Assembly (NCBI GenBank): GCA_016199745.1
Contig: JACQFZ010000027.1
Coordinates: 35,812-59,811, forward strand
Origin: Gammaproteobacteria bacterium
GTDB lineage: Bacteria > Pseudomonadota > Gammaproteobacteria > Acidiferrobacterales > Sulfurifustaceae
Length of the DNA stretch: 24,000 bases
Reading direction: 5' to 3'
In this document: one piece after another, positions 2,919 to 24,000 of the stretch
Numbering within the stretch: position 1 is the first letter of the stretch
How the letters are laid out: each line of letters starts with the position of its first letter
Position numbers and translations under genes: made by a program
Notes under the pieces: model-generated
Told to the model about the DNA's origin: nothing
Database searches by the model: none
The model's input: the letters and a program-made list of their open reading frames with translations, nothing else

Positions 2919-4925
2919 CTATTGCGAGGCGGCGGACACCGTGGAAGGAAGCGCCATCTCGGCCACCGGCAAGCGGGCGACGTGACGCCTGGCGATCACC
3001 GTCCGAAGCTCCGCCACTCGCGCTTCGAGCTCAGCGACGCGTTGGCCCTCATTGAGCTGGCGCGCCAACTGAATAGTGAAGTCGAGATAGGTAAGCACGG
3101 TTTGGGTCGGGAAGTACCAATAATCGCTGCCAGCCTCGAGCAATTTGTAGGCCTCACGCGGACGTTCGGTACGCACCAACAAACGCGCGTACTGAACACG
3201 CGCTGACAGGTAAAGCGGGTCCAACGTCAGCGCTCGGCGAAAGTCCGCCTCGGCGTCATTAAGCCAATTGGTGCCGGCTAGGTCGGAATTTTCCTCTACC
3301 ACCCTGGCCCGCACCGTCGGAACTAGCGCGCGGTAACGATTGAGCGACTCCGCTCGCGCCAGCATCATCAGCGCTTCCTCGTATAACGCGCGGCGCTCGG
3401 CCAGCGCCGTCGGCGGCAGCTTACGCAAAACGTGCCGATAAAGATCGGCATGAATCGTCCAAATACGATCATCGGCGGCAGTCATCTGCTCCGCCCAGGC
3501 AAATAGATGGTCTGCTTCCCGCAAGTTGCCTAGGAGCGCCTCGTTGAAGCCCTTCTTATAAAGAACATCGGCAGTTGCAAATGCGACAAGGTAGGAGATG
3601 GGGAACAACATTAATAAGAGCACGACCAGCCGGTAGAACGGCCCCTTTAACACCTTCGCCGGCTGTAACGTCCAGGTGCGTACCACGGTCCCGGCGGTGG
3701 CACAATCTTGAAAACGAGCCAGCATCAGGCCAGCGACGATCGAAATCGGCAATATGTAAAAGTCGAAATCAAGCCCGCTATGCAGCGCCACCGCCAGCAG
3801 TCCGGCGAAAAGCCCGAGCAACTCGAGCAATCGCTTCGGCGATAAACGCCGCTGCCGCAGTGCCCATACGCACATCAGTAACACGCTGACCAACACCGCC
3901 AACCACAACAATAGGCCCGGCAGGCCGGTCTCGATCCAGATCTGCAAATAATCGTTATGGGCGAAAAAGCCAAGCGTCGAATCGTCCGGGTGCCGATAAG
4001 GTGGCCATACGAGGTAATAGAGGCCTAGGCCGACGCCCCACCAAGGGCTGTCCTTGAGCAAATTCCACGAACCGCGCCAGATTAAAAACCGAGTCGAGCC
4101 GGCCGCTTCCGGATCACCGAGGGTCGACAGCTTGCTGACAACATCGCCGCTCTGGACGAGGTTGGCGACGACGTAAGCCGCGACCAGTACACCGATCAGC
4201 ACAACCACCGGTCGACGGCCAACGGTGCGTACCGCCAGCGACAGCAATATCACCGTACTCACCAATAGACTGATGCTGGTACCGCGTCCCTGAGTAGCAG
4301 CAATAGCGAAAGCAATAATAAAGATGCCGATACCAAGGCCGTGAACCACTAGCGGCTTCTTGCGAGCATGTAATGCCGTCAGCAAGTGCGCGCACAGCGG
4401 CAACAAAATCAACATCAGCAACGCTGCGTACGAATGTAGATTAATGAACGGACCATGGGGCCGCTGCTGCAGAACGAACAACTGCACCAGACCATGAATC
4501 GACAACGCTAATGCTCCGAGCGCTATTAAACGCGAGGCGTAAAACCAAATTCGTTCGCGCTCCGGCGACAAGGTATAGGCCCAAAACACCAAGGCAACGC
4601 TACCGACCCACCAAAAATTGAGATCGCTGGTTCCCGGCACCGGCGTCCACAGCAGCGACAACCCGAGCCACATCCAAAAAAGCGTGAGGCTGACGCTAAG
4701 CGGCGTCAGCAGGAACACGACACCGCTGTCGTAGCGGCGTGCCAACGACAACCCGAGCCAAGCCACCAGGAGCGCTTGCGCACCGGCGAGCAGCGGTAGT
4801 TGTGGACCGTTGAAGAAAACCGCCAGAGCAAATGCGGCAGCGACGCAAAAAGCACTCGCGCGCGTGCCGAGCGGTGCGTGCAGGGCGGCCATGATTCGCG
4901 AACGTTTTTTGTTGGGCGGGCCCAT
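2919..4925 (-). CDS. Polytopic O-antigen-ligase-like (Wzy_C domain) membrane protein with a C-terminal TPR-like helical-repeat domain
   Basis: 668-aa ORF. About the first 450 aa are a run of hydrophobic helices with a Wzy_C-like signature (...ATQGRGTSISLL... and FFAHNDYLQIWIETGLPGLLLWLAVL). The last ~200 aa are soluble and Ala/Leu/Arg/Tyr-rich with TPR-like periodicity (ALYEEALMMLARAESLNRY..., FRRALTLDPLYLSARVQYARLLV). The start is uncertain: ATG at 4925 or the in-frame ATG at 4892. Confidence 0.7.
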   Translation of the reverse strand: MGPPNKKRSRIMAALHAPLGTRASAFCVAAAFALAVFFNGPQLPLLAGAQALLVAWLGLSLARRYDSGVVFLLTPLSVSLTLFWMWLGLSLLWTPVPGTSDLNFWWVGSVALVFWAYTLSPERERIWFYASRLIALGALALSIHGLVQLFVLQQRPHGPFINLHSYAALLMLILLPLCAHLLTALHARKKPLVVHGLGIGIFIIAFAIAATQGRGTSISLLVSTVILLSLAVRTVGRRPVVVLIGVLVAAYVVANLVQSGDVVSKLSTLGDPEAAGSTRFLIWRGSWNLLKDSPWWGVGLGLYYLVWPPYRHPDDSTLGFFAHNDYLQIWIETGLPGLLLWLAVLVSVLLMCVWALRQRRLSPKRLLELLGLFAGLLAVALHSGLDFDFYILPISIVAGLMLARFQDCATAGTVVRTWTLQPAKVLKGPFYRLVVLLLMLFPISYLVAFATADVLYKKGFNEALLGNLREADHLFAWAEQMTAADDRIWTIHADLYRHVLRKLPPTALAERRALYEEALMMLARAESLNRYRALVPTVRARVVEENSDLAGTNWLNDAEADFRRALTLDPLYLSARVQYARLLVRTERPREAYKLLEAGSDYWYFPTQTVLTYLDFTIQLARQLNEGQRVAELEARVAELRTVIARRHVARLPVAEMALPSTVSAASQ

Positions 4926-5533: not shown

Positions 5534-7834
5534 GTGCCCCGTCGCCGCTCCCCTATCCGCCGCTTGCTGCGTCCTCGCCGACTTGTCGTCGTCGGCCTTT
5601 GCCTCATCGCCGTGTTCGCGGTGTATATCGGCTATCTCGACTTCACCATCCGCGCCAAGTTCGAAGGCAAGCGCTGGGCACTGCCGGCGCGGGTGTATGC
5701 CAGCCCGATCGAGCTCTATCCCGGCAAAAAATTATCGACGCTCCAGCTTAGCGAAGAACTGACCGCGCTCGGTTACCGGCACGGCACGGCCAACGATCCC
5801 GGCTACTACACGCGCGGCAACGACAGTATCGACATTAACTCGCGGCCGTTCGCATTCTGGGATGGCGCGCAACCGGCGAAGCGATTCCGCGTTTCGTTCA
5901 GCAACGATCGCATCACCGGTCTTACCGATCTCAGCACCGACCAGTCACTGCCGCTCGCGCGCCTCGATCCGCTCTTGGTCGGCGGTATCTATCCGGCGCA
6001 CAACGAAGACCGCGCGTTGGTGAAGCTCGAAGAAGTCCCGCCGGCGCTACTCAAGACGCTGGTCGCGGTCGAAGATCACAAGTACTACGAACATCACGGC
6101 ATCGACCCGCGCGGCATCGCCCGCGCCATCCTCGCCAACATGCGCGCCGGCGGCAGCGTGCAAGGCGGCAGCACACTGACGCAACAGCTGGTCAAAAATT
6201 TTTATTTGACCGACGAACGCACGCTGCGACGCAAACTGGTCGAGGCGTTGATGGCGCTGCTGCTCGACGCGCACTACAGCAAGGACGAAATTCTCGAAGC
6301 CTACATCAACGAAATTTATTTGGGCCAAGACGGCAACCGCGCGATCCACGGTTTCGGTCTGGCATCGCAACATTATTTCGATCGGCCGCTGCAGCAACTG
6401 TCGCAATCGCAGATCGCGCTGCTGGTCGGCCTGGTCAAAGGCCCGTCGTTCTACGATCCGCGCCGTAATCCGCAACGCGCGTTAGCACGGCGCAATCTCG
6501 TACTCGCTGAGCTCGCCCAACAAAAAATCATCGACTCGACGACGCTGTTGCGCGCGAAAGCGATGCCGCTCGAAGTCACCGCGCGCGCGCCGGCCGGGAC
6601 ATCGCCGTATCCGGCGTTCCTCGCCTTGGTCGTGCGGCAATTGCGTCAGGATTACTCGGAAGACGACCTGCGCTCAGAAGGCTTGAGCATTTTCACGACA
6701 CTCGATCCACGCACGCAACGCAGTGCCGAGCAAGCCCTGGACACGCGGCTGACGGCGCTCGAGAAACAGCGACGCCTACCGGCCGGTATGCTCGAAGGCG
6801 CGGTGGTCGTCACCACCACCGACAACGGCGAAGTGCTCGCGTTAGTCGGCGGCCGTCACACTCGCTACGACGGCTTCAATCGCGCACTCGATGCCGAGCG
6901 CTCGATCGGTTCGCTGATTAAGCCGGTGGTGTACCTGACCGCCCTCATGCAGCCAGAGAAGTACACGCTGACGACGCTGCTCGATGACAGTCCGCTCAAG
7001 TGGAAAGACCACGGTAGCCAGGAATGGACGCCGCAGAATTACGATAAACAATTTCACGGCCAGGTAGAGCTGCGCAACGCCTTGGCACAGTCGTACAACA
7101 TTTCCACCGCCCGCCTCGGCCTGGCGCTCGGTGTGCCGAAGGTCATCGATCAGGCACACCGGCTCGGAATCGAGCGCACGTTGCCGCCGTACGGCTCGAC
7201 ACTGCTCGGCGCTGTCGGTCTGACACCGCTAGAAGTAGCGCAGATGTATCAGACGATCGCCAGCGGCGGTTTTCGCACCGGCTTGCGTGCCATTCGCGAA
7301 GTCGTGACGCCGGCGGGGGAACCGCTCAAGCGTTACGCGCTGGCGGTCGAACAAACGGCCGATCCGGCGGCGGTCTATTTGCTGACCGCCGGCTTACAAC
7401 ATGTCGTCGCCGCGGGTACCGCGACCGGCCTACGCGCTTACTTACCGGCCGAGCTTAATGTCGCCGGTAAGACCGGCACGACCGACGATCTGCGGGACAG
7501 TTGGTTTGCTGGCTTTACCGGCGATAAGCTCGGGGTTGTTTGGCTGGGCCGCGACGACAATCAACCGACCGGATTGACCGGTGCCAGCGGTGCGCTCACG
7601 GTATGGGGGCAGATGATGCAGTCGCTCGATCCTGAGCCGCTGCAACCGGCAATACCGGAGACGATCGAGCGGGTACAGATCGATCCGCAGACGCATTTAT
7701 TGGGCGATGGTTGCAGCGGTGCCATCGAGGTTCCCTATATGCGCGGCTCGGCACCGACAGCGCGCGCGCCTTGCGCCGGCCGCTCGCCGGTACAAGCCGT
7801 GAAGAGTTGGTTCAAGAGGTTACTCGAACGATGA
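5534..7834 (+). CDS. mrcB: Bifunctional penicillin-binding protein 1B (glycosyltransferase GT51 + D,D-transpeptidase)
   Basis: 766 aa with a GTG start. It has a basic N-terminal tail and one TM helix (LVVVGLCLIAVFAVYIGYL). A UB2H-sized insert precedes the GT51 motifs (EDHKYYEHHGID, GGSTLTQQLVKN, RKLVEALMA). The transpeptidase motifs are SLIK (SxxK), SYN (SxN) and KTGT. Confidence 0.92.
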   Translation: MPRRRSPIRRLLRPRRLVVVGLCLIAVFAVYIGYLDFTIRAKFEGKRWALPARVYASPIELYPGKKLSTLQLSEELTALGYRHGTANDPGYYTRGNDSIDINSRPFAFWDGAQPAKRFRVSFSNDRITGLTDLSTDQSLPLARLDPLLVGGIYPAHNEDRALVKLEEVPPALLKTLVAVEDHKYYEHHGIDPRGIARAILANMRAGGSVQGGSTLTQQLVKNFYLTDERTLRRKLVEALMALLLDAHYSKDEILEAYINEIYLGQDGNRAIHGFGLASQHYFDRPLQQLSQSQIALLVGLVKGPSFYDPRRNPQRALARRNLVLAELAQQKIIDSTTLLRAKAMPLEVTARAPAGTSPYPAFLALVVRQLRQDYSEDDLRSEGLSIFTTLDPRTQRSAEQALDTRLTALEKQRRLPAGMLEGAVVVTTTDNGEVLALVGGRHTRYDGFNRALDAERSIGSLIKPVVYLTALMQPEKYTLTTLLDDSPLKWKDHGSQEWTPQNYDKQFHGQVELRNALAQSYNISTARLGLALGVPKVIDQAHRLGIERTLPPYGSTLLGAVGLTPLEVAQMYQTIASGGFRTGLRAIREVVTPAGEPLKRYALAVEQTADPAAVYLLTAGLQHVVAAGTATGLRAYLPAELNVAGKTGTTDDLRDSWFAGFTGDKLGVVWLGRDDNQPTGLTGASGALTVWGQMMQSLDPEPLQPAIPETIERVQIDPQTHLLGDGCSGAIEVPYMRGSAPTARAPCAGRSPVQAVKSWFKRLLER

Positions 7835-8274: not shown

Positions 8275-9350
8275 ACGATGTCACGTTGATGCGCTCGATC
8301 ATTCAGCGCATCGCCACCGGTCCCGAGCTCAGTAAAGATATCTCCTACGAACAGGCACGCGCCGGCATGACGCTGGTGCTCGACGGCCGCGTCGATCCGG
8401 TGCAGGCCGGTATATTCCTCATTGCGTTACGCATGAAGCGCGAGAGCGACGACGAGCTGCGTGGCCTGCTCGATGCGTTGCGCGCGGCCACGCAAACCGT
8501 GGTCGCCGACGTCGACGAGCTGATCGACATCGGCGATCCGTACGACGGTTACGGCCGCTCGTTGCCGGTGGCGCCATTCTTGCCGGCGGTGCTCGCCGCC
8601 TGCGGCGTGCCGGCCATATCGCACGGTGCCGAATCGATGGGGCCGAAGTACGGTGTAACGCATCGGCAAGTGTTGCGTGCTGCCGGCTTGCCGTTCGACC
8701 TCTCCATGGCTGATGCCGTTGCGCGCGTGCGCGATCCGCAAATTGGTTGGGCCTACGTCGATCAGCGTGTGTTCTGCCCGAAGTTGCATGCACTGACGCC
8801 GCTGCGCGATTTGATCGTCAAGCGGCCGGCGTTGACTACCCTCGAAGGACTCGCCGGTCCGATCCGCGCGCGTCGCCGTACGCATGTGCTCAGCGGTTTC
8901 GTACACAAAGCGTATCCGCGCATCTATGCGCTACTTGCGCGGCACGCCGGTTTCGAGTCGGCGTTGATCGTGCGTGGTATCGAAGGCGGCGTGATCCCGA
9001 CGTTGCGCGAGCAAGGACGATTCTTTTACTACCGTGACGGTGGCGCCGAGCAGGAACAAATCATTATGCCGGCCGATTTCGGTTTCGCCAACGGCTTGCA
9101 GGCGCCGGCGCTGCCGGGAACGACGACCGAGAACTCGGCGCCGATCGATGCCGTCACCGTCGCCAAAGCAGCGGCCGACACCGGCCGGCGCGCGCTTGCC
9201 GGTGAACCCGGACCGGCGCGCGACGGCTTGATTCTGGCGGCGGCGCTTTGTCTGTGGCAACTCCAGCGCCAACCGTCGCTGCGCGCTGCCGCCGATGCGG
9301 TGCGTGAGGTACTGGATAACGGCAACGCCGTGAAGCGGCTCGCCGCTTAA
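8271..9350 (+). CDS. TrpD-like (anthranilate phosphoribosyltransferase fold, glycosyltransferase family 3) paralogue, TrpD2/YbiB-like and probably not a true TrpD
   Basis: 359 aa. The GTG start overlaps the lipoprotein stop (GTGA); an alternative ATG is at 8289. The N-terminal helical Glycos_trans_3N-like region reads ...ARAGMTLVLDGRVDPVQAGIFLIALRMKRESDDELRGLLDALR. Where canonical TrpD has the PRPP-binding GTGGD loop, this protein has IGDPYDGYGRS, followed by the conserved ...GVPAISHG. Confidence 0.6.
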   Translation: MNDVTLMRSIIQRIATGPELSKDISYEQARAGMTLVLDGRVDPVQAGIFLIALRMKRESDDELRGLLDALRAATQTVVADVDELIDIGDPYDGYGRSLPVAPFLPAVLAACGVPAISHGAESMGPKYGVTHRQVLRAAGLPFDLSMADAVARVRDPQIGWAYVDQRVFCPKLHALTPLRDLIVKRPALTTLEGLAGPIRARRRTHVLSGFVHKAYPRIYALLARHAGFESALIVRGIEGGVIPTLREQGRFFYYRDGGAEQEQIIMPADFGFANGLQAPALPGTTTENSAPIDAVTVAKAAADTGRRALAGEPGPARDGLILAAALCLWQLQRQPSLRAAADAVREVLDNGNAVKRLAA

Positions 9351-16130: not shown

Positions 16131-17786
16131 TCATCTTATTGCGGTTGTTCGTGCTTTCCAAAGCAACAACCCACCGGCCGCCACCAGGGCTGAACCCGCG
16201 AGTGCGGGAGGGCTAAGATCGGCAGGATAGCCTCCTAGCCCCCACAATAAGGCAGCGACCAGCAAGAACGACGTACCGACCAAGGAAAGTTGTTGCCGGC
16301 GCTCGCTTGCCCGCAACTGTAATCGCAGCCGCGCAATCTCGTCGGATTTCCACTGCAATGCCAAATCGCCCGAGCGTGCACGCTCCAATATTTCGTGAAT
16401 TAAGCCCGGCATGCGCGGCAGCAATGACCACCACTTCGGTCCCTCAGCCCGCAGCACTCGCAGGAAGGCGCGCGGACCCATGTTGTCACGCGCCCACTGT
16501 TCGAGATACGGCTTGGCGGTCTCCCAAAGGTCGAGATCCGGATAGAGCCGGCGCCCTAAGCCCTCGATGTTGAACAGCGTCTTTTGCAGTAACACCAACT
16601 GCGGCTGCACTTCCATATTGAACTGGCGCGCCGTTTGGAACAGCTGCAACAACAACCGGCCGAAAGAAATGTCCTTGATCGGTCGGGCAAAGATCGGCTC
16701 ACATACGGCGCGTATCGCCGCTTCGAATTCGCCAACCGGAGTATCGCGCGGCACCCAACCGGCGCGTAGATGCGCTTCAGCGACGGCACGGTAATCGCGA
16801 TTGAAGAAGGCGATAAAATTTTCGGCGAGGTAACGCTTATCGGCGTCGCCGAGCGTACCCATGATGCCGAAGTCGACCGCGCGATATTGACCTTCCGGCG
16901 ACACGAAGATATTGCCCGGATGCATATCGGCGTGAAAAAAGCCGTCGCGAAACGCTTGCGTGAAAAAGATCTCGACGCCGTTGTGCGACAGCCGGCGGAA
17001 ATCGATGCCGGCCGACTTGAGGGCTTCAATATTGCTGATGGGGAAACCGTAAATGCGTTCCATCACCATCACTTCACGGCGCGTCAGATCCCAAAAAATC
17101 TTCGGCACATACAGCAAATCGGAGTCGGTAAAGTTGGCGCGCAGCTGGCTCGCGTTCGCCGCCTCGCGTCGCAAATCGAGCTCGTGGCGAATGGTCTTAT
17201 GGAACTGCTCGACGACTTCCACCGGCCGCAATCGCGGACCGTCCGGCAGATAGCGGCGCGCTAACCGTGCCAGCAAATACATCAACTCGACGTCACGCTC
17301 GATGACGTTTTCGATACCGGGCCGCAATACCTTTACCGCAACGTCGGAACCGTCATGTAATCGCGCTAAATGGACCTGGGCGACCGAGGCCGATGCGATC
17401 GGTTGGGTATCGAACTGTGCAAAGTGCGTGGTCAACGGCGCGCCGAGTGCCGCAACAACGATGCGCTCGGCACGCTCACCGGGGAATGGCGGCACTTGGT
17501 CTTGTAGCTTCGCGAGTTCCTCGGCGATGTCGGGCGGCAGTAGATCCGGACGAGTCGACAACATCTGCCCGAACTTGACGAACACCGGTCCGAGTTCTTC
17601 CAACGCCTCGCGCAAGCGTACCGCGCGCGGCGCGGGGCGACGGCGAATAAGCCGCCACGGCATCAGCCGCAGCAACAAGCGATAGGGACGGAATAAATGG
17701 ATCGCCGTTACGAACTCATCGAGATCGTGTTTAACAAAAATACGGGTGATGCGCGTAAGGCGGCGAATCTGGCGTAGGCGCGGCAT
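16131..17786 (-). CDS. ubiB: Ubiquinone biosynthesis regulatory protein kinase UbiB (ABC1/ADCK family)
   Basis: I trimmed track ORF 16131..17963 to the in-frame ATG at 17786, which shares one base with the ubiJ stop (TGATG). The N-terminus is [25 protein letters not shown]... . ABC1 motifs follow (LEELGPVFVKFGQMLSTRPDLLP, ASASVAQVH, VAVKVLRPG, FFHADMHPGNIFV), then two C-terminal TM helices. Confidence 0.92.
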   Translation of the reverse strand: MPRLRQIRRLTRITRIFVKHDLDEFVTAIHLFRPYRLLLRLMPWRLIRRRPAPRAVRLREALEELGPVFVKFGQMLSTRPDLLPPDIAEELAKLQDQVPPFPGERAERIVVAALGAPLTTHFAQFDTQPIASASVAQVHLARLHDGSDVAVKVLRPGIENVIERDVELMYLLARLARRYLPDGPRLRPVEVVEQFHKTIRHELDLRREAANASQLRANFTDSDLLYVPKIFWDLTRREVMVMERIYGFPISNIEALKSAGIDFRRLSHNGVEIFFTQAFRDGFFHADMHPGNIFVSPEGQYRAVDFGIMGTLGDADKRYLAENFIAFFNRDYRAVAEAHLRAGWVPRDTPVGEFEAAIRAVCEPIFARPIKDISFGRLLLQLFQTARQFNMEVQPQLVLLQKTLFNIEGLGRRLYPDLDLWETAKPYLEQWARDNMGPRAFLRVLRAEGPKWWSLLPRMPGLIHEILERARSGDLALQWKSDEIARLRLQLRASERRQQLSLVGTSFLLVAALLWGLGGYPADLSPPALAGSALVAAGGLLLWKARTTAIR

Positions 17787-18379
17787 CAAGCGGTTCCAAT
17801 GAGGCGCTGCACGCGCTTTTCGAGTCGATCGGTATCGGCGCGCAGGTTGTCGACGTCGCGCAGGAACGCCTGCACGCGTTCGCGCTTGGCTAGTACGAAC
17901 GCTTCTTCCTGCAAATATTCGGCGGCATCGACACCGAGCGTCTGCGCCGCGCGCACGCCCCATTGACGAAAGCCACGCGCGAAACGACCGAGTTGGTGCG
18001 CCGGAATATCACCAATGACGCGCGCCAGGCCCTCCTCCCAATCGGGATCGAGACTGGAAACAATGCGCTGAAAACGTTGGCCGAGCTCGATGTCGCCGCG
18101 GATCGTCAGCTCGCCGGAAACCGTCGGTCCGCGCAGCAACTGCTTCATAAAAATTTCGCGCGTGCCGCTGATGGTGACGTCGGGCGTGCGGTCGTACTCG
18201 CGCTGCAGTCCTACGCCGGACGCCGTCGGTAATACGTACAACCGCAACGGCGTATGCTCGTCGGCGATCTCGAGCAAGATCGCCTTGCCGTGCAACTCGC
18301 CGAAACGACGCGTTGCCTCGGGATCCAGATGAAGCGCGCGATTGATCGCCGCTTCGAACAAACCCCCGAGCACGCTCAC
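17786..18379 (-). CDS. ubiJ: Ubiquinone biosynthesis accessory factor UbiJ (SCP2 lipid-binding domain)
   Basis: 197 aa with a GTG start that overlaps the ubiE stop. It has an SCP2-like N-terminal half ([28 protein letters not shown]...[13 protein letters not shown]) and a DWEE...GDIPAH segment. The ubiE-ubiJ-ubiB order matches E. coli. Confidence 0.85.
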
Positions 18380-19686: not shown

Positions 19687-20406
19687 ATGGCGATCACAAC
19701 TGCAAGCATGCAATCCTTCCGTGGCAAAGTTCTCGTCGTCGATGACGAAGCCGCTATCCGGCAAATGCTCTGTCTCGCACTCACGCACGCCGGCTATCAC
19801 TGTCTCGAAGCCGCCGACACCAACGAGGCACAGATGCAAATCGTCAATGAAACACCGGACCTCGTACTGCTCGACTGGATGCTGCCCGGCATCAGCGGTC
19901 TTGAATACGCGCGCCGGTTGCGGCGCGAGAAGCTGACACAAGATTTGCCGATTATCATGCTGACCGCACGCACCGAAGAAGAAGACAAAGTCCGCGGCCT
20001 CGACAGCGGCGCCGACGATTACTTGACCAAGCCTTTTTCCACCCGCGAGCTATTGGCACGCATCAAGGCGCTGCTGCGGCGCAGCTCACCGCTGGCGGTC
20101 GAATCGCCGGTCGAGGTCGACGGTCTCGCGCTCGATCCGGTCACGCACCGCGTGCTCGCCGGCGGCCAAAACTTGGCGTTGGGTCCGACCGAATTCCGTT
20201 TATTACATTTCTTCATGACCCACCCCGAACGCGTGCACTCGCGCGAACGGCTGTTGAACGGCGTCTGGGGCGACAACGTGTACGTTGAGGAACGTACGGT
20301 CGACGTTCACATCCGCCGTCTACGCAAAGCTTTGATTCCGACCGGTCACGAGCGCTTGATCCAAACCGTGCGCGGCGCCGGTTACCGTTTCTCGCCGCAA
20401 CTCTAA
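19687..20406 (+). CDS. phoB: Phosphate regulon response regulator PhoB (OmpR family)
   Basis: 239 aa; an alternative ATG at 19708 would give [14 protein letters not shown]. The receiver domain is almost collinear with E. coli PhoB ([11 protein letters not shown]...[44 protein letters not shown]). A winged-helix output domain follows ([31 protein letters not shown]...[14 protein letters not shown]). Confidence 0.9.
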
Positions 20407-20410
20407 GCGC

Positions 20411-21733
20411 GTGCGGCAAAGTCTCTGGCGTGAAGTTTGGATTCTGGCCGGCCTCACTGGCTTGGGGCTGGCGATCGGTCTGTTCACAACCCACGTATTC
20501 CTCTTTCCCTTCCTTGGCCTGTGCGTTTACATCGCCCTGCAACTGCGCCAACTCAAGCGGCTCCATACCTGGTTGCTGGCCGAAAAAGGCGGCGAAGTTC
20601 CCGAAGCCCCTGGCCTATGGGGCGATGTGTTCAACGAAATCCGTAAGCTCGTACGTCAATCGGAACAACGCAGCGACGAGCTAAACGATTTGTTAGTGCG
20701 TTTCCAAAGTGCATCGGCGGCCATGCCCGATGCCGTGGTGATTCTGTCCGAGAACGAAGAGATCGAATGGGCCAACCCGGCGGCCGAGCACTTGCTCGGG
20801 CTCGACTATCCGCGCGACGCCGGCGTGCGCCTGGCGAATCTTATCCGCGATCCGCAATTCACCGACTATCTCGCGCGCGCTAATTTTGCCGAGCCGCTGG
20901 AAATGGATTCACCGGCCGATCCCCATTTAATGGTGTCACTGCAGTTAATTTCGTTCGGTGCGCAACGTCGGCTCGTCATCGGCCGCGACATCACGCGCCT
21001 GACGCGACTCGAGCAAATGCGCCGGACCTTTGTCGCCAACGTGTCGCACGAGCTGCGCACGCCGATCACAGTCTTAGGCGGTTATCTCGAAACGTTGCGC
21101 AGCTTAGACAATCTCGATCCGAACGAGCTGAAAAAACATCTGGCCGTCATGCACGAGCAGGCCGGCCGCATGCAGCGTTTGGTGGACGACTTGTTAACGC
21201 TGTCGCGGTTGGAAACGGCACCACCACGGCAAAAAGACGAGACCGTCGATGTACCGTCGCTGCTCGCCGGTCTGCGAGAACAGGCCGAGATCCTAAGCGG
21301 CGAGGCACACCATCGCATCACGCTCGACGCCGAGCCGAACTTACAACTGCTCGGGAGTCGTGAAGAGTTACACAGCGCGTTCATGAACGTTATCCAAAAC
21401 GCCGTGCGCTACACCCCGGCGGGCGGCAATATCAATCTGCGCTGGGCAACCGACGCCGAAGGCGCAAAGTTCTCGGTCACCGACAGCGGCGAAGGCATTG
21501 CCGCTGAGCACATCCCGCATCTAACCGATCGCTTCTATCGCGTCGACACCGCCCGCTCGCGCGATTCCGGCGGCACCGGCCTTGGGCTGTCGATCGTCAA
21601 GCACGTGCTGCTGCGCCATGATGCCGAGCTGCGCATCGACAGCGAGATCGGCGTCGGCAGTACCTTCATTTGCGCGTTTCCAACCGATCGCTTAATCCGC
21701 AGTCAAACCTCGACGAAAACGGTGCGCGCCTAG
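20411..21733 (+). CDS. phoR: Phosphate regulon sensor histidine kinase PhoR
   Basis: 440 aa with a GTG start 4 nt after the phoB stop. It has two N-terminal TM segments, a charged linker, a PAS-like region, a HisKA H-box (FVANVSHELRTPITVL) and an HATPase_c domain with N, G1 and G2 boxes (NAVRYTP, DSGEGI, GGTGLGLSIV). Confidence 0.9.
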   Translation: MRQSLWREVWILAGLTGLGLAIGLFTTHVFLFPFLGLCVYIALQLRQLKRLHTWLLAEKGGEVPEAPGLWGDVFNEIRKLVRQSEQRSDELNDLLVRFQSASAAMPDAVVILSENEEIEWANPAAEHLLGLDYPRDAGVRLANLIRDPQFTDYLARANFAEPLEMDSPADPHLMVSLQLISFGAQRRLVIGRDITRLTRLEQMRRTFVANVSHELRTPITVLGGYLETLRSLDNLDPNELKKHLAVMHEQAGRMQRLVDDLLTLSRLETAPPRQKDETVDVPSLLAGLREQAEILSGEAHHRITLDAEPNLQLLGSREELHSAFMNVIQNAVRYTPAGGNINLRWATDAEGAKFSVTDSGEGIAAEHIPHLTDRFYRVDTARSRDSGGTGLGLSIVKHVLLRHDAELRIDSEIGVGSTFICAFPTDRLIRSQTSTKTVRA

Positions 21734-21740
21734 CGCTCCA
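21665..21740 (+). repeat. Left copy of a 76-bp direct repeat (attL-like). It covers the last 22 codons and the stop of phoR, plus 7 nt.
   Basis: TTCATTTGCGCGTTTCCAACCGATCGCTTAATCCGCAGTCAAACCTCGACGAAAACGGTGCGCGCCTAGCGCTCCA aligns without gaps to 22580-22655 (offset 915 bp). There are 2 mismatches (21674 G/A, 21683 A/G), and the last 57 bp are identical. Confidence 0.9.
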
Positions 21741-21870
21741 CACACCGGTAGCGTTCAACACAAGAAACAACGACGACGCCAAGAATAGCGGGCGAGACAA
21801 GCCGGCGCGGCCGGTCACGGGCCTTGCGGGCGTAGCCCGATGCGAGTCGACACTTGCCCTTACCCGCCGC

Positions 21871-21969
21871 AAGACATTCGCCCAAGCATTGGCTACCATG
21901 CCAAACGTTGGCTGCGACGAGGATTTTGCACGCAAGGAAGATAAGAGAGCACGCAATGTACTTGGTTGA
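21871..21969 (+). pseudogene. C-terminal remnant of a Phd/YefM- or VapB-type antitoxin gene (N-terminal DNA-binding part missing)
   Basis: The last ~32 codons of track ORF 21670..21969 read KTFAQALATMPNVGCDEDFARKEDKRARNVLG*. This resembles the toxin-binding C-terminal tails of antitoxins paired with MYLxDTNV-type VapCs, and it overlaps the vapC start by 14 nt. Upstream in the same frame the sequence is Arg/Asn-rich read-through of the repeat and of phoR, with no antitoxin-like N-terminal domain. Confidence 0.4.
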
Positions 21970-22375
21970 TACCAATGTTATAAGCGAAGTTCGTAAAGGG
22001 ACGCGAGCCAATGCAGGTGTACGTGACTTCTTCAAGCGTACCGCCGCAGACCAATCACCTGTCTTCCTTTCAGTCGTAACAGTTGGCGAGCTCCGTAGAG
22101 GCGTTGAGCTCATCCGCCATCGTGGAGATGTTCCTCAGGCAAACCGACTCGAGAAATGGTTACAGCAGATATTGCTCAACTATGAGGACTACATCCTAGA
22201 CATAGATTCTGATGTCGCCCAACTGTGGGGTCGACTGCGTGTACCGAATTACGAGAATGCGTTGGATAAATTAATAGCAGCTAGCGCACTGATTCATAAT
22301 CTGACCGTCGTAACACGCAATAGCGACGACTTTTCAAAAACAGGGGTTCGCACTCTTGACCCCTTCTCGCAATAG
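21956..22375 (+). CDS. vapC: Type II toxin VapC (PIN-domain ribonuclease)
   Basis: I trimmed track ORF 21854..22375 to the ATG at 21956, giving 139 aa. The N-terminus is the canonical MYLVDTNVISEVRKG. All four PIN acidic residues are present: D5, E45 (TVGELRRG), D104 (ALDKLIAASAL) and D124 (VVTRNSDDF). Confidence 0.88.
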   Translation: MYLVDTNVISEVRKGTRANAGVRDFFKRTAADQSPVFLSVVTVGELRRGVELIRHRGDVPQANRLEKWLQQILLNYEDYILDIDSDVAQLWGRLRVPNYENALDKLIAASALIHNLTVVTRNSDDFSKTGVRTLDPFSQ

Positions 22376-22555
22376 ATAAAGACAACAAACGCGACCCAGT
22401 CGCTACCTAGAATTTCAGTAACGCATCTCGCCCGCCTAACAAGAGAACTACAACAGACGCGAAAATTATACTGATCTTTTCCTCTCGCCGACCCTGCAGG
22501 GGAAACTCAACCCAACCATGGGGCTTCTTCATCTGTCTGATATACAACGTCGAAA

Positions 22556-22655
22556 AGCGAACATCGCGCCTGCAACACTTTCATTTGCACGTTTCCAGCC
22601 GATCGCTTAATCCGCAGTCAAACCTCGACGAAAACGGTGCGCGCCTAGCGCTCCA
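22556..22655 (+). repeat. Right copy of the direct repeat (attR-like): a displaced, diverged 3' fragment of a phoR gene
   Basis: Positions 22580-22655 match 21665-21740 (74/76). Read in the phoR frame it gives FICTFPADRLIRSQTSTKTVRA*, against FICAFPTDRLIRSQTSTKTVRA* in phoR. Weaker codon-level similarity continues about 24 bp further upstream (SEHRACNTF vs SEIGVGSTF) and then stops. Confidence 0.85.
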
Positions 22656-22701
22656 TGGGGTGGTATAACTGCCGCTCACATTTACGTTCGAAGAACTCTC
22701 C

Positions 22702-24000
22702 ATGAGCACACTCTCGGCCGACGCCCTGAACACCCTTTGCGCCTGCAGCACGGTGCCACGCGACAGCCTGCGCGCCGAGCTCGATCGCGCCAGCGGCGAG
22801 ACCGGTTTCTACGACGGCGCCATCGCCACGCGGCCGCACCTATTTTCCGAGTCGGCGGTGTTCTTATCGCAATCTCATCTCGACGGCATCGTTGCGCTGG
22901 TCGGTGCGGTCGAGGCGGTTACCGCTCTGCCGGCGTATCGCGACGCCATCCGTCAATGGATGCCGGCGATCGCGACGCACGAGTTCGGTCCGCTCGGCGC
23001 ATTCCTCGGCTACGATTTTCATCTCACGTCTGACGGCCCGCGGTTAATCGAGATCAATACCAACCCCGGCGGTGCACTGTTGAACGCCAGCCTGGCGCGC
23101 GCCCACCGCGCCTGCTGTCCGGTGCTCGAACCGTACGTGCCATCGGCGAATACGCAAACGCCGGAAGATTTATTTGTCGAGATGTTCCGCAACGAATGGC
23201 GTCGGCAACGCGGCGACGCCCGGCTCGAGCACGTCGCCATTATCGACGAATCGCCATCGAGTCAATTTCTCGAACCGGAGTTCCGCCTATTCGCGCATCT
23301 GTTCGCGCAACACGGCATGGTGGCGGCGATCGTCGATTCGCGCGAGCTCGACTGGCACGAGAATCGTCTGTGGTACGCGCGCGATCCGATCGATCTGGTG
23401 TACAACCGCCTGACCGACTTCGCGCTCGAAGAAAACGAAAACATCCGCGACGCTTATCTCGCCGGTAGCATCGTGTTGACGCCGCATCCGCGCGCGCATG
23501 CGCTCTACGCCGATAAACGTAATCTCACGCTGCTCAGCAATCCGGCGCAACTGCGCGCCTGGGGCGTACCGGCGGAACAGGTGGCGATTCTACAAGCGGG
23601 CATTCCACCGACGCGCCGCGTCGAACGCGGCGATGCCGACGCGCTCTGGGCCGAACGGCGTCAATTGTTTTTCAAACCGGCGACCGGTTATGGCAGCAAA
23701 GCCAGCTATCGCGGCGACAAACTAACGCGCGGTGTGTGGGAGCAAATTCTACGCGGCGAATACGTCGCCCAAGCGCAGGTGGCACCGAGCGTGCGTCGCA
23801 TCAGCAGTGCACCAGACGTATTGTTAAAACTCGATGTGCGGGCGTACGTCTACGCCGGCCATTTGCAATTGCTGGCGGCGCGACTGTATCAAGGACAGAC
23901 AACTAACTTTCGCACACCGGGCGGCGGCTTCGCGCCGGTATATGTATTGCCGGATGACATGCCGTTGCCGGACGTTGTGAGCGGCTGTCCGACCGATTAA
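22702..24000 (+). CDS. Hypothetical protein, possibly of the ATP-grasp superfamily (circularly-permuted / glutathionylspermidine-synthase-like type)
   Basis: 432-aa ORF whose stop is the last codon of the window. The segment GAFLGYDFHLTSDGPRLIEINTNPGGALLNA resembles the 'RxDF...dG.lk.lE.NtdsP.G' strand-loop of circularly permuted ATP-grasp enzymes. Later segments (LVYNRLTDF..., HALYADKRNL, LFFKPATGYGSKASY) are compatible with nucleotide-binding strands. The assignment is tentative. Confidence 0.4.
   Translation: MSTLSADALNTLCACSTVPRDSLRAELDRASGETGFYDGAIATRPHLFSESAVFLSQSHLDGIVALVGAVEAVTALPAYRDAIRQWMPAIATHEFGPLGAFLGYDFHLTSDGPRLIEINTNPGGALLNASLARAHRACCPVLEPYVPSANTQTPEDLFVEMFRNEWRRQRGDARLEHVAIIDESPSSQFLEPEFRLFAHLFAQHGMVAAIVDSRELDWHENRLWYARDPIDLVYNRLTDFALEENENIRDAYLAGSIVLTPHPRAHALYADKRNLTLLSNPAQLRAWGVPAEQVAILQAGIPPTRRVERGDADALWAERRQLFFKPATGYGSKASYRGDKLTRGVWEQILRGEYVAQAQVAPSVRRISSAPDVLLKLDVRAYVYAGHLQLLAARLYQGQTTNFRTPGGGFAPVYVLPDDMPLPDVVSGCPTD

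Follow-up and report, generated by a model that had tools for sequence, protein, structure and literature searches.

A duplicated phoR 3' terminus around a vapC islet: possible scar of a gene-terminus-replacing integrative element

Introduction

How did the 3' end of phoR, a phosphate-sensor kinase gene, come to be present twice, 915 bp apart, with a toxin gene in between? This question is raised by a 24,000-nt stretch of contig JACQFZ010000027.1 (assembly GCA_016199745.1, positions 35,812 to 59,811), which we analysed at its full length and call the window. The findings rest throughout on metagenome assemblies, the source DNA itself being a groundwater metagenome-assembled genome (MAG). An earlier note on this DNA, made from its sequence alone, had proposed that the two phoR ends bracket a recombinase-less integrative element that targets phoR. 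Our best reading is that the bracketed islet is the scar of a gene-terminus-replacing integrative element; carrying no recombinase, it is not itself a self-sufficient element.

Results

The islet follows directly on phoR (20411-21733, + strand), which encodes a 440-aa phosphate-regulon sensor kinase that is full-length against TIGR02966 (phoR_proteo, 441 bits, cutoff 334) and NF008235 (404 bits) and is 100% identical to an NCBI MAG protein. A repeat search of the window found the end of this gene twice, as direct repeats at 21651-21740 and 22566-22655 that align over 90 nt without gaps and are identical at 83 positions (92%), with a spacing of 915. The left, attL-like copy comprises the last 80 nt of phoR together with the stop codon and 7 nt beyond it, and the right, attR-like copy, also on the + strand, is a displaced phoR pseudo-terminus. 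The strong unit of the alignment (21665-21740 and 22580-22655) is identical at 74 of 76 positions, both mismatches lying in its first 19 nt, and it contains a 57-mer (21684-21740 and 22599-22655) that is perfectly identical and has exactly two occurrences in the 24 kb. For a sequence of this length, chance cannot account for an exact 57-nt repeat. These results agree with the earlier note, which had described gap-free repeats matching at 74 of 76 positions and identical over their last 57 bp, and extend the alignment to 90 nt. The note had also held that phoR is intact with its stop codon inside the repeat, and this is the case: the TAG stop codon lies at 21731-21733, recurs at 22646-22648, and is followed by 7 nt before the identical block ends.

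Divergence between the copies is found at the inner edge of the right one. Counted along the 90 nt, the seven mismatches have offsets 3, 5, 9, 10, 13, 23 and 32, so that in the right copy 22580-22598 holds two of them, 22566-22579 matches at only 9 of 14 positions, and the DNA further inward is unrelated to phoR. The right copy replaces PhoR residues G416 and S417, which are invariant in 13 PhoR proteins, and likewise the nearly invariant G414, which argues that its diverged inner part was never a working phoR allele at that place. The homology of the right copy to the phoR terminus, as claimed before, is supported; the codon-level likeness that had been read at the inner edge (SEHRACNTF against SEIGVGSTF) is weak evidence. 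No tRNA, Rfam family or unusual structure was found at the repeat (fold z=+0.7), and a structured RNA was rejected on these results. Terminal inverted repeats were not detected either, and a transposon was likewise rejected.

The insert between the repeats is 839 bp long and is made up of four parts. Next to the left copy lies a GC-rich segment of 103 bp (21741-21843, GC 0.65), which links the repeat to the middle of a vapB gene and is specific to this variant, as it matches neither the related contig described below (L034), nor vapBC relatives, the rest of the window, plasmids or phages. It is followed by vapB' (21844-21969, +), the C-terminal 41 codons of a 77-aa FitA-like ribbon-helix-helix (RHH) antitoxin gene, and, overlapping its end by 14 nt, by vapC (21956-22375, +), an intact gene for a 139-aa PIN-domain toxin (PF01850, E=7e-13; MBI3898137.1). 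An AT-rich non-coding spacer of 190 bp (22376-22565, GC 0.47) completes the insert; it is identical in L034 and has no homology to the flanks of the vapBC relatives.

Most of this DNA is compositionally foreign. GC content falls to 0.47-0.52 across 21900-22600, compared with 0.59-0.66 in the flanks, and GC at third codon positions is 0.48 for vapC compared with 0.66-0.74 in nine host genes. The earlier statement that the bracketed DNA differs in composition from its surroundings therefore holds for 21844-22565, where GC is 0.49, and fails for the 103-bp segment. Searches for related DNA were largely empty. The 103-bp segment was similar to nothing searched, the open reading frames (ORFs) spanning it had no protein-family match, and those spanning the left junction had no exact match in the protein collection. 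The spacer at 22376-22565 gave no Rfam, promoter or terminator, Pfam or PHROG signal. BLAST of the islet against plasmids and phages returned only a weak vapB/vapC match on a Cupriavidus chromid, and two islet-specific patterns were absent from IMG/VR.

The toxin belongs to a common family. Its acidic residues D5, E45, D104 and D125 occupy invariant or nearly invariant columns among 13 homologues, the closest of which share 85-86% amino acid identity, and FitAB-like VapBC homologues at 72-86% amino acid identity are widespread on environmental contigs. A sister variant of the islet is present on L034, a 990-bp Logan contig from run SRR12113408 that is 100% identical to window 21844-22628. The two sequences have alternative left parts, L034 1-205 and window 21741-21843, and are identical over the remaining 785 bp. 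In its left part L034 carries what the window lacks, namely an intact vapB encoding a 77-aa FitA-like RHH protein (PF22513 at residues 2-39), with a promoter and a palindromic operator. The window copy keeps codons 37-77 only, the RHH domain, promoter and operator being deleted, and its homology both to L034 and to more distant vapBC cassettes begins abruptly at 21844. The window copy has thus lost the vapB promoter and the DNA-binding half of the antitoxin, so that decay by deletion is directly visible, and this loss is recent, given that the two variants do not differ at any of the other 785 bp. The suggestion in the earlier note that the islet might be a deletion remnant gains support here, as L034 has an intact vapB where the window has 103 unrelated bp. 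Its description of the cargo as a toxin-antitoxin module applies to vapC, which is intact, and no longer to vapB, which is left without its promoter and its entire DNA-binding half.

Two features of the truncated gene are recorded here in their own right. The 12-mer GAACATCGCGCC (codons EHRA) occurs at 22559-22570, on the fuzzy left edge of the phoR pseudo-terminus, and again at L034 188-199 in vapB, where the breakpoint of the deletion in the window variant is 6 nt away; by chance, about 0.02-0.05 such matches would be expected within the islet. An ORF at 21670-21969 (+), whose TTG start falls within the terminal part of phoR, extends over the repeat and the 103-bp segment and is in frame with vapB'; it has no in-frame ATG or GTG. 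As it stands in the window, vapC has lost its own promoter, and only read-through from phoBR, the phosphate-starvation operon, could transcribe it.

The same run also provides an independent assembly of the right-hand side. A second contig, L035, is identical to window 22599-24000. It begins at the first base of the identical block, and L034 ends at 22628, 30 nt past the last mismatch of the right copy; these contig ends suggest a de Bruijn graph with k=31 in which two sequences enter the block and one leaves it. The junction from islet to repeat to downstream DNA is reproduced independently in this way: as far as contig ends can tell, the diverged, phoR-like segment next to vapC does join the block and the downstream gene.

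What lies downstream is likely the original neighbourhood of phoR. Behind the right copy come native intergenic DNA (22656-22701) and a gene for a conserved 432-aa hypothetical protein (22702-24000, +), which appears to be the original downstream neighbour. No species-level relative is present in the databases, the next most similar PhoR anywhere being 78% identical. In the contig that encodes a PhoR of this similarity (L036, JGI 3300073982), the gene 51 bp behind phoR encodes a 439-aa protein, 66% identical in amino acids to the 22702-24000 product, and pstSCAB comes next. The distance from the pseudo-stop to the 22702 gene in the window is 53 bp, compared with these 51 bp. L036 thus represents, judged at the level of synteny only, the unoccupied arrangement, and the empty site for which the earlier note proposed to look was found in this form. 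In other relatives the cargo behind phoR varies: L090 has olsB/olsA-like acyltransferase genes there, and in L015 pstS comes immediately after phoR.

The closest vapBC homologues, at 85% amino acid identity, led to a second locus of the same kind. In Sulfuricaulis-like MAGs (L038-L041, L109-L111) they have groEL on one side and a convergent O-methyltransferase gene on the other; there, in three lineages, vapBC is the sole content between two direct repeats with a spacing of 828 bp. These repeats are 72 nt long and 92% identical in L040 (9091-9162 and 9919-9990), 64 nt and 86% in L038 (9644-9707 and 10472-10535), and lie at about 3650-3720 and 4460-4535 in L109; overall their identity is 84-92%. 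The right copy consists of the last ~70 nt of the methyltransferase gene with its stop codon and 1 nt more, the left copy is a pseudo-terminus, and spacers of 29 and 46 nt separate the repeats from the cassette. L038 and L040 are 87% identical from the exact outer edge of the left copy onward and unrelated to the left of it, where one has a restriction-modification cassette and the other a DUF4412 gene pair; in L109 an OmpA-like gene takes this place, and the pseudo-copy has decayed further by a deletion of ~16 nt. On these grounds the insertion is old and vertically inherited.

The two islets thus share the vapBC family, repeats of a gene terminus and a similar spacing (828 and 915 bp), whereas the methyltransferase islet differs in its target gene, in the antisense orientation of vapBC (sense to phoR in the window), in its age and in its intact vapB. 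Nine further loci of this vapBC family lacked such repeats: two environmental loci, five on chromids or megaplasmids, one on a Synechocystis plasmid and one on a viral contig. A motif common to the phoR and methyltransferase repeats was looked for, and their best local alignment fell short of significance (p about 0.15). A proposed homology between the first 53 nt of L034 and the methyltransferase pseudo-copy was set aside, the alignment being unconvincing. Next to the islet in L040, the groEL terminator hairpin is duplicated (7208-7238 and 9036-9066; 31 nt, 90%) around a two-gene insert that encodes a DUF4412 protein and a hypothetical protein.

We surveyed about 80 other phoR loci for a repeated terminus: 33 from species-representative genomes, 47 from metagenomes, and those of L036, L090 and 4 viral contigs. 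The insertion at the phoR terminus is a single occurrence. The idea of an element class that targets phoR found no support in these loci, in the JGI metagenomes or in IMG/VR, all of which were negative, and full-text literature searches returned nothing on phoR as an attB or integration site. No recombinase domain was found in the islet, in agreement with the earlier note, or anywhere else in the 24-kb window, the other genes of which are housekeeping genes.

The remaining features of the neighbourhood are conserved. Upstream of phoR lies phoB (19687-20406, +), the response regulator gene (Pfam Response_reg and Trans_reg_C) and first gene of the phoBR operon; the phoB-phoR order is also found in L001, L002, L015 and L036, and the ubiE-ubiJ-ubiB and DUF971-phoBR synteny is kept in relatives. 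The longest ubiB ORF (16131-17963, -; 610 aa) overlaps the upstream SCP2/ubiJ ORF (17786-18379, -) by 178 nt, and since the UbiB homologue in L036 has 551 aa, the true ubiB start is probably further downstream. The product of 22702-24000 has no Pfam or NCBIfam family above threshold and no relative in the PDB by sequence, and its earlier label as ATP-grasp-like came down to one sub-threshold Pfam match (ATPgrasp_ST, E=0.089, 25 residues). A conserved hypothetical protein of ~435 aa is thus encoded between phoR and pstSCAB in two lineages (window 22702-24000 and L036 7372-8691), and it may be an uncharacterised member of the Pho regulon.

Discussion

A foreign insert, an intact phoR and a displaced terminus that sits on the original downstream DNA together have the geometry of a Campbell-type single crossover. 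We tentatively favour, with somewhat less than even credence, an integrase-mediated insertion of this type at the phoR terminus, followed by deletional decay. A small piece of foreign DNA with a FitAB-like vapBC cassette would have been taken into the chromosome when the phoR terminus there recombined, in one reciprocal crossover inside the 57-bp identical block, with a segment resembling that terminus on the incoming, presumably circular DNA. The block would have been duplicated in the process, leaving intact phoR followed by element DNA, with the pseudo-terminus pushed 915 bp downstream and still joined to the native intergenic DNA and the neighbouring gene. The catalyst would most likely have been a site-specific integrase that is no longer present, either because a larger ancestor was deleted down to its addictive toxin-antitoxin module or because the enzyme was supplied in trans. 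The further, recent deletion of the vapB promoter and DNA-binding half would then have turned the MAG variant into an immobile scar with an orphan vapC, and there is no sign that the islet is still mobile.

Several observations speak for this integrase-mediated insertion, among them the repeat itself, the foreign composition of most of the insert, the unoccupied synteny in L036, the independently assembled right junction and the visible deletion within vapB. The duplication reaches just past the stop codon, which is enough to rebuild the ORF, and the gene-terminus duplication around vapBC alone at the methyltransferase locus fits a toxin-antitoxin module that survives deletion last. Toxin-antitoxin modules are addictive, and their deletion is counter-selected; by this logic the modules in vapBC-only islets could be the last survivors of decaying integrated elements, which is one of two possible readings of such islets. 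The seven mismatches of the repeat all fall within the first 33 of its 90 nt (P=0.0006 under uniform decay), which argues against the simple decay of a tandem duplication, an argument not to be pressed given that the clustering loses significance (p about 0.06) if only the 76-nt unit is homologous.

This last value is one of several points that weigh against the integrase-mediated reading. Neither the islet ORFs nor the 20 large ORFs of the window encode an integrase, an excisionase or a remnant of one, and arm-type repeats and inverted core-type sites were not detected. A 32-nt core pattern was absent from the JGI metagenomes and IMG/VR, none of the about 80 phoR loci had its 3' end a second time in the DNA downstream (up to 10 kb), and the larger, recombinase-bearing occupants for which the earlier note had proposed to search were found at none of them, nor was a free attP found in the three collections searched. 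The first 103 bp of the insert are host-like in composition. The Logan assembly of SRR12113408 contains neither an exit from the repeat to the left part of the insert (core followed by 21741 onward), since its core continues straight into the downstream gene, nor the 21843|21844 junction, so that the left junction (21740|21741 and 21843|21844) stands without independent support; this may reflect low coverage, pruning, differences between strains, or a mixture of sites with and without the insert. Finally, the second vapBC example has short spacers and a cassette opposite in orientation to its target gene, neither of which is readily expected if the two islets are independent, decayed remnants of related elements that carried an integrase.

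The main rival, which we regard as rather unlikely, keeps the Campbell topology and dispenses with any integrase at any time: host RecA would insert a circle of vapBC and one gene terminus into the end of the recipient's gene, a circle that might have formed in a donor whose flanking repeats recombined with each other, and toxin-antitoxin addiction would block the reverse loss. The lack of any recombinase in islet and window would follow naturally, and a perfect identity of 57 bp is sufficient for RecA-dependent exchange. A unit of only 828-915 bp also suits this route, as does the methyltransferase islet, which is little more than vapBC and a repeat, with the cassette inverted and spacers of 29 and 46 nt that leave no room for other functions; the neighbouring two-gene insert in L040, flanked as it is by a duplicated groEL terminator, points the same way. 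Yet the RecA route does not explain where the first repeat came from, or why both duplications stop 1-7 nt past a stop codon, and a diverged donor fragment should differ along the whole repeat and not just at its inner edge. Neither a circular form nor a donor was observed, and repeats of this kind are missing from the nine other loci of the vapBC family. A bolder idea, the second of the two readings of vapBC-only islets, which we consider distinctly unlikely, is that the mobile entity is the ~0.8-0.9-kb unit of vapBC and one gene terminus itself, a minimal, recombinase-less addictive cassette that would circularise via its repeats and re-insert at the 3' ends of conserved genes, phoR here and an O-methyltransferase gene in Sulfuricaulis-like bacteria; the groundwater population would then be polymorphic, with empty, occupied and decaying sites, for a previously unknown phoR attB.

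The repeats could alternatively be working attL and attR sites of a still functional cis-mobilisable element (CIME), served by an integrase encoded elsewhere in the genome, on an integrative and conjugative element (ICE) or on a phage. The islet does fit the definition of such elements in lacking integration and transfer genes while keeping att-like flanking repeats (PMC6323972). Its 57-nt blocks are still perfect, and a core with two entries and one exit to the downstream gene in SRR12113408, as the contig ends suggest, would fit a mixture of occupied and unoccupied sites. We find a functional CIME very doubtful all the same, as no cognate integrase or related occupant turned up in any collection searched, the islet is visibly decaying with its truncated vapB, and graph branches missing at low coverage have trivial explanations. 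About equally improbable is an artefact of assembly or strain mixture, in which the contig would thread a graph loop at the 57-bp block while, in any single cell, phoR might directly precede the 22702 gene and the vapC segment lie elsewhere or in another strain. The source is after all a MAG, the identical block is about the size of a common assembler k-mer, and the SRR12113408 Logan assembly has neither the exit from the core to 21741 nor the 21843|21844 junction, with an intact vapB to the left of 21844 instead. Against this, the junction of islet and core, including the 33 diverged phoR-like nt that were found nowhere else, is reproduced independently, so the second phoR terminus attached to vapC is real; moreover, k-mer collapse cannot invent a unique 103-bp segment, and NCBI, ENA and Logan assemblies share the architecture at the methyltransferase locus. 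Least credible of all is an illegitimate or break-repair insertion that itself duplicated about 76-90 bp of the recipient, the non-coding copy decaying afterwards. Similar repeat lengths (72 and 76 nt) at two target genes around the same cassette family could be taken this way, and the older example does have mismatches spread along the repeat and a decaying pseudo-copy; but no mechanism is known to duplicate so long a stretch of target, searches showed neither conserved element ends nor terminal inverted repeats, and the repeat in the window is clearly young and perfect except at its inner edge, to which its divergence is limited.

If the insertion at phoR did proceed by integration as we favour, phoR would join a short list of coding genes (icd, fda, guaA and others) whose 3' ends are repaired by incoming DNA. 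The intact and decapitated antitoxin variants in related data would offer a natural example of how an insert erodes to its toxin-antitoxin module and beyond. The same vapBC family, found twice alone between duplicated gene termini, could also point to a simple way for toxin-antitoxin cassettes to spread that requires no recombinase of their own. The practical consequences for the host are small, the downstream gene being displaced by 915 bp.

Among known systems, two candidates were rejected. For an integrative mobile element exploiting Xer (IMEX), nothing in the window matched the E. coli dif core at <=3 mismatches, and on direct reading the repeat has no XerD-arm-like sequence; for a diversity-generating retroelement, there was no reverse transcriptase, and only 2 of the 7 mismatches have A in the non-coding copy. 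The cargo compares well with FitAB-like VapBC modules, sharing the PIN toxin and overlapping genes and, in L034, the RHH antitoxin (PF22513) with a palindromic operator, although in the window the antitoxin is decapitated, and gene-terminus repeats are missing at 9 of the 11 family loci examined.

The CIMEs of Streptococcus, for example those that share the 3' end of fda with ICESt1 and ICESt3, resemble the islet in their flanking repeats, their location at a gene 3' end and their lack of integration and transfer genes. CIMEs are defined as having lost the genes for integration and transfer while keeping attL and attR (PMC6323972). They are recognised by att sites shared with the ICE that mobilises them, whereas for the window islet no cognate ICE, integrative and mobilisable element (IME), integrase or other user of the site was found; it cannot be filed as a strict CIME, as no cognate ICE or IME shares its att site.

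The closest parallel in geometry is offered by e14 and phage 21 at icd. With about 15 kb, e14 is a much larger insert than the 839 bp of the islet; it encodes its own integrase and excisionase, whereas the islet has no recombinase, a different target in phoR and no known intact relative. The precedent is documented in E. coli: e14 inserts into the end of icd, whose last codons then come from the element, and a 163-bp duplicate, icd', is displaced to the far junction (PMC6379469). The islet, seen once and in a MAG, shares with e14 and phage 21 the insertion into the end of a coding gene, terminal codons supplied by the element, the direct-repeat geometry and a slightly diverged copy. As a scar it is thus of an ordinary type, in a target gene, phoR, that has not been reported before.

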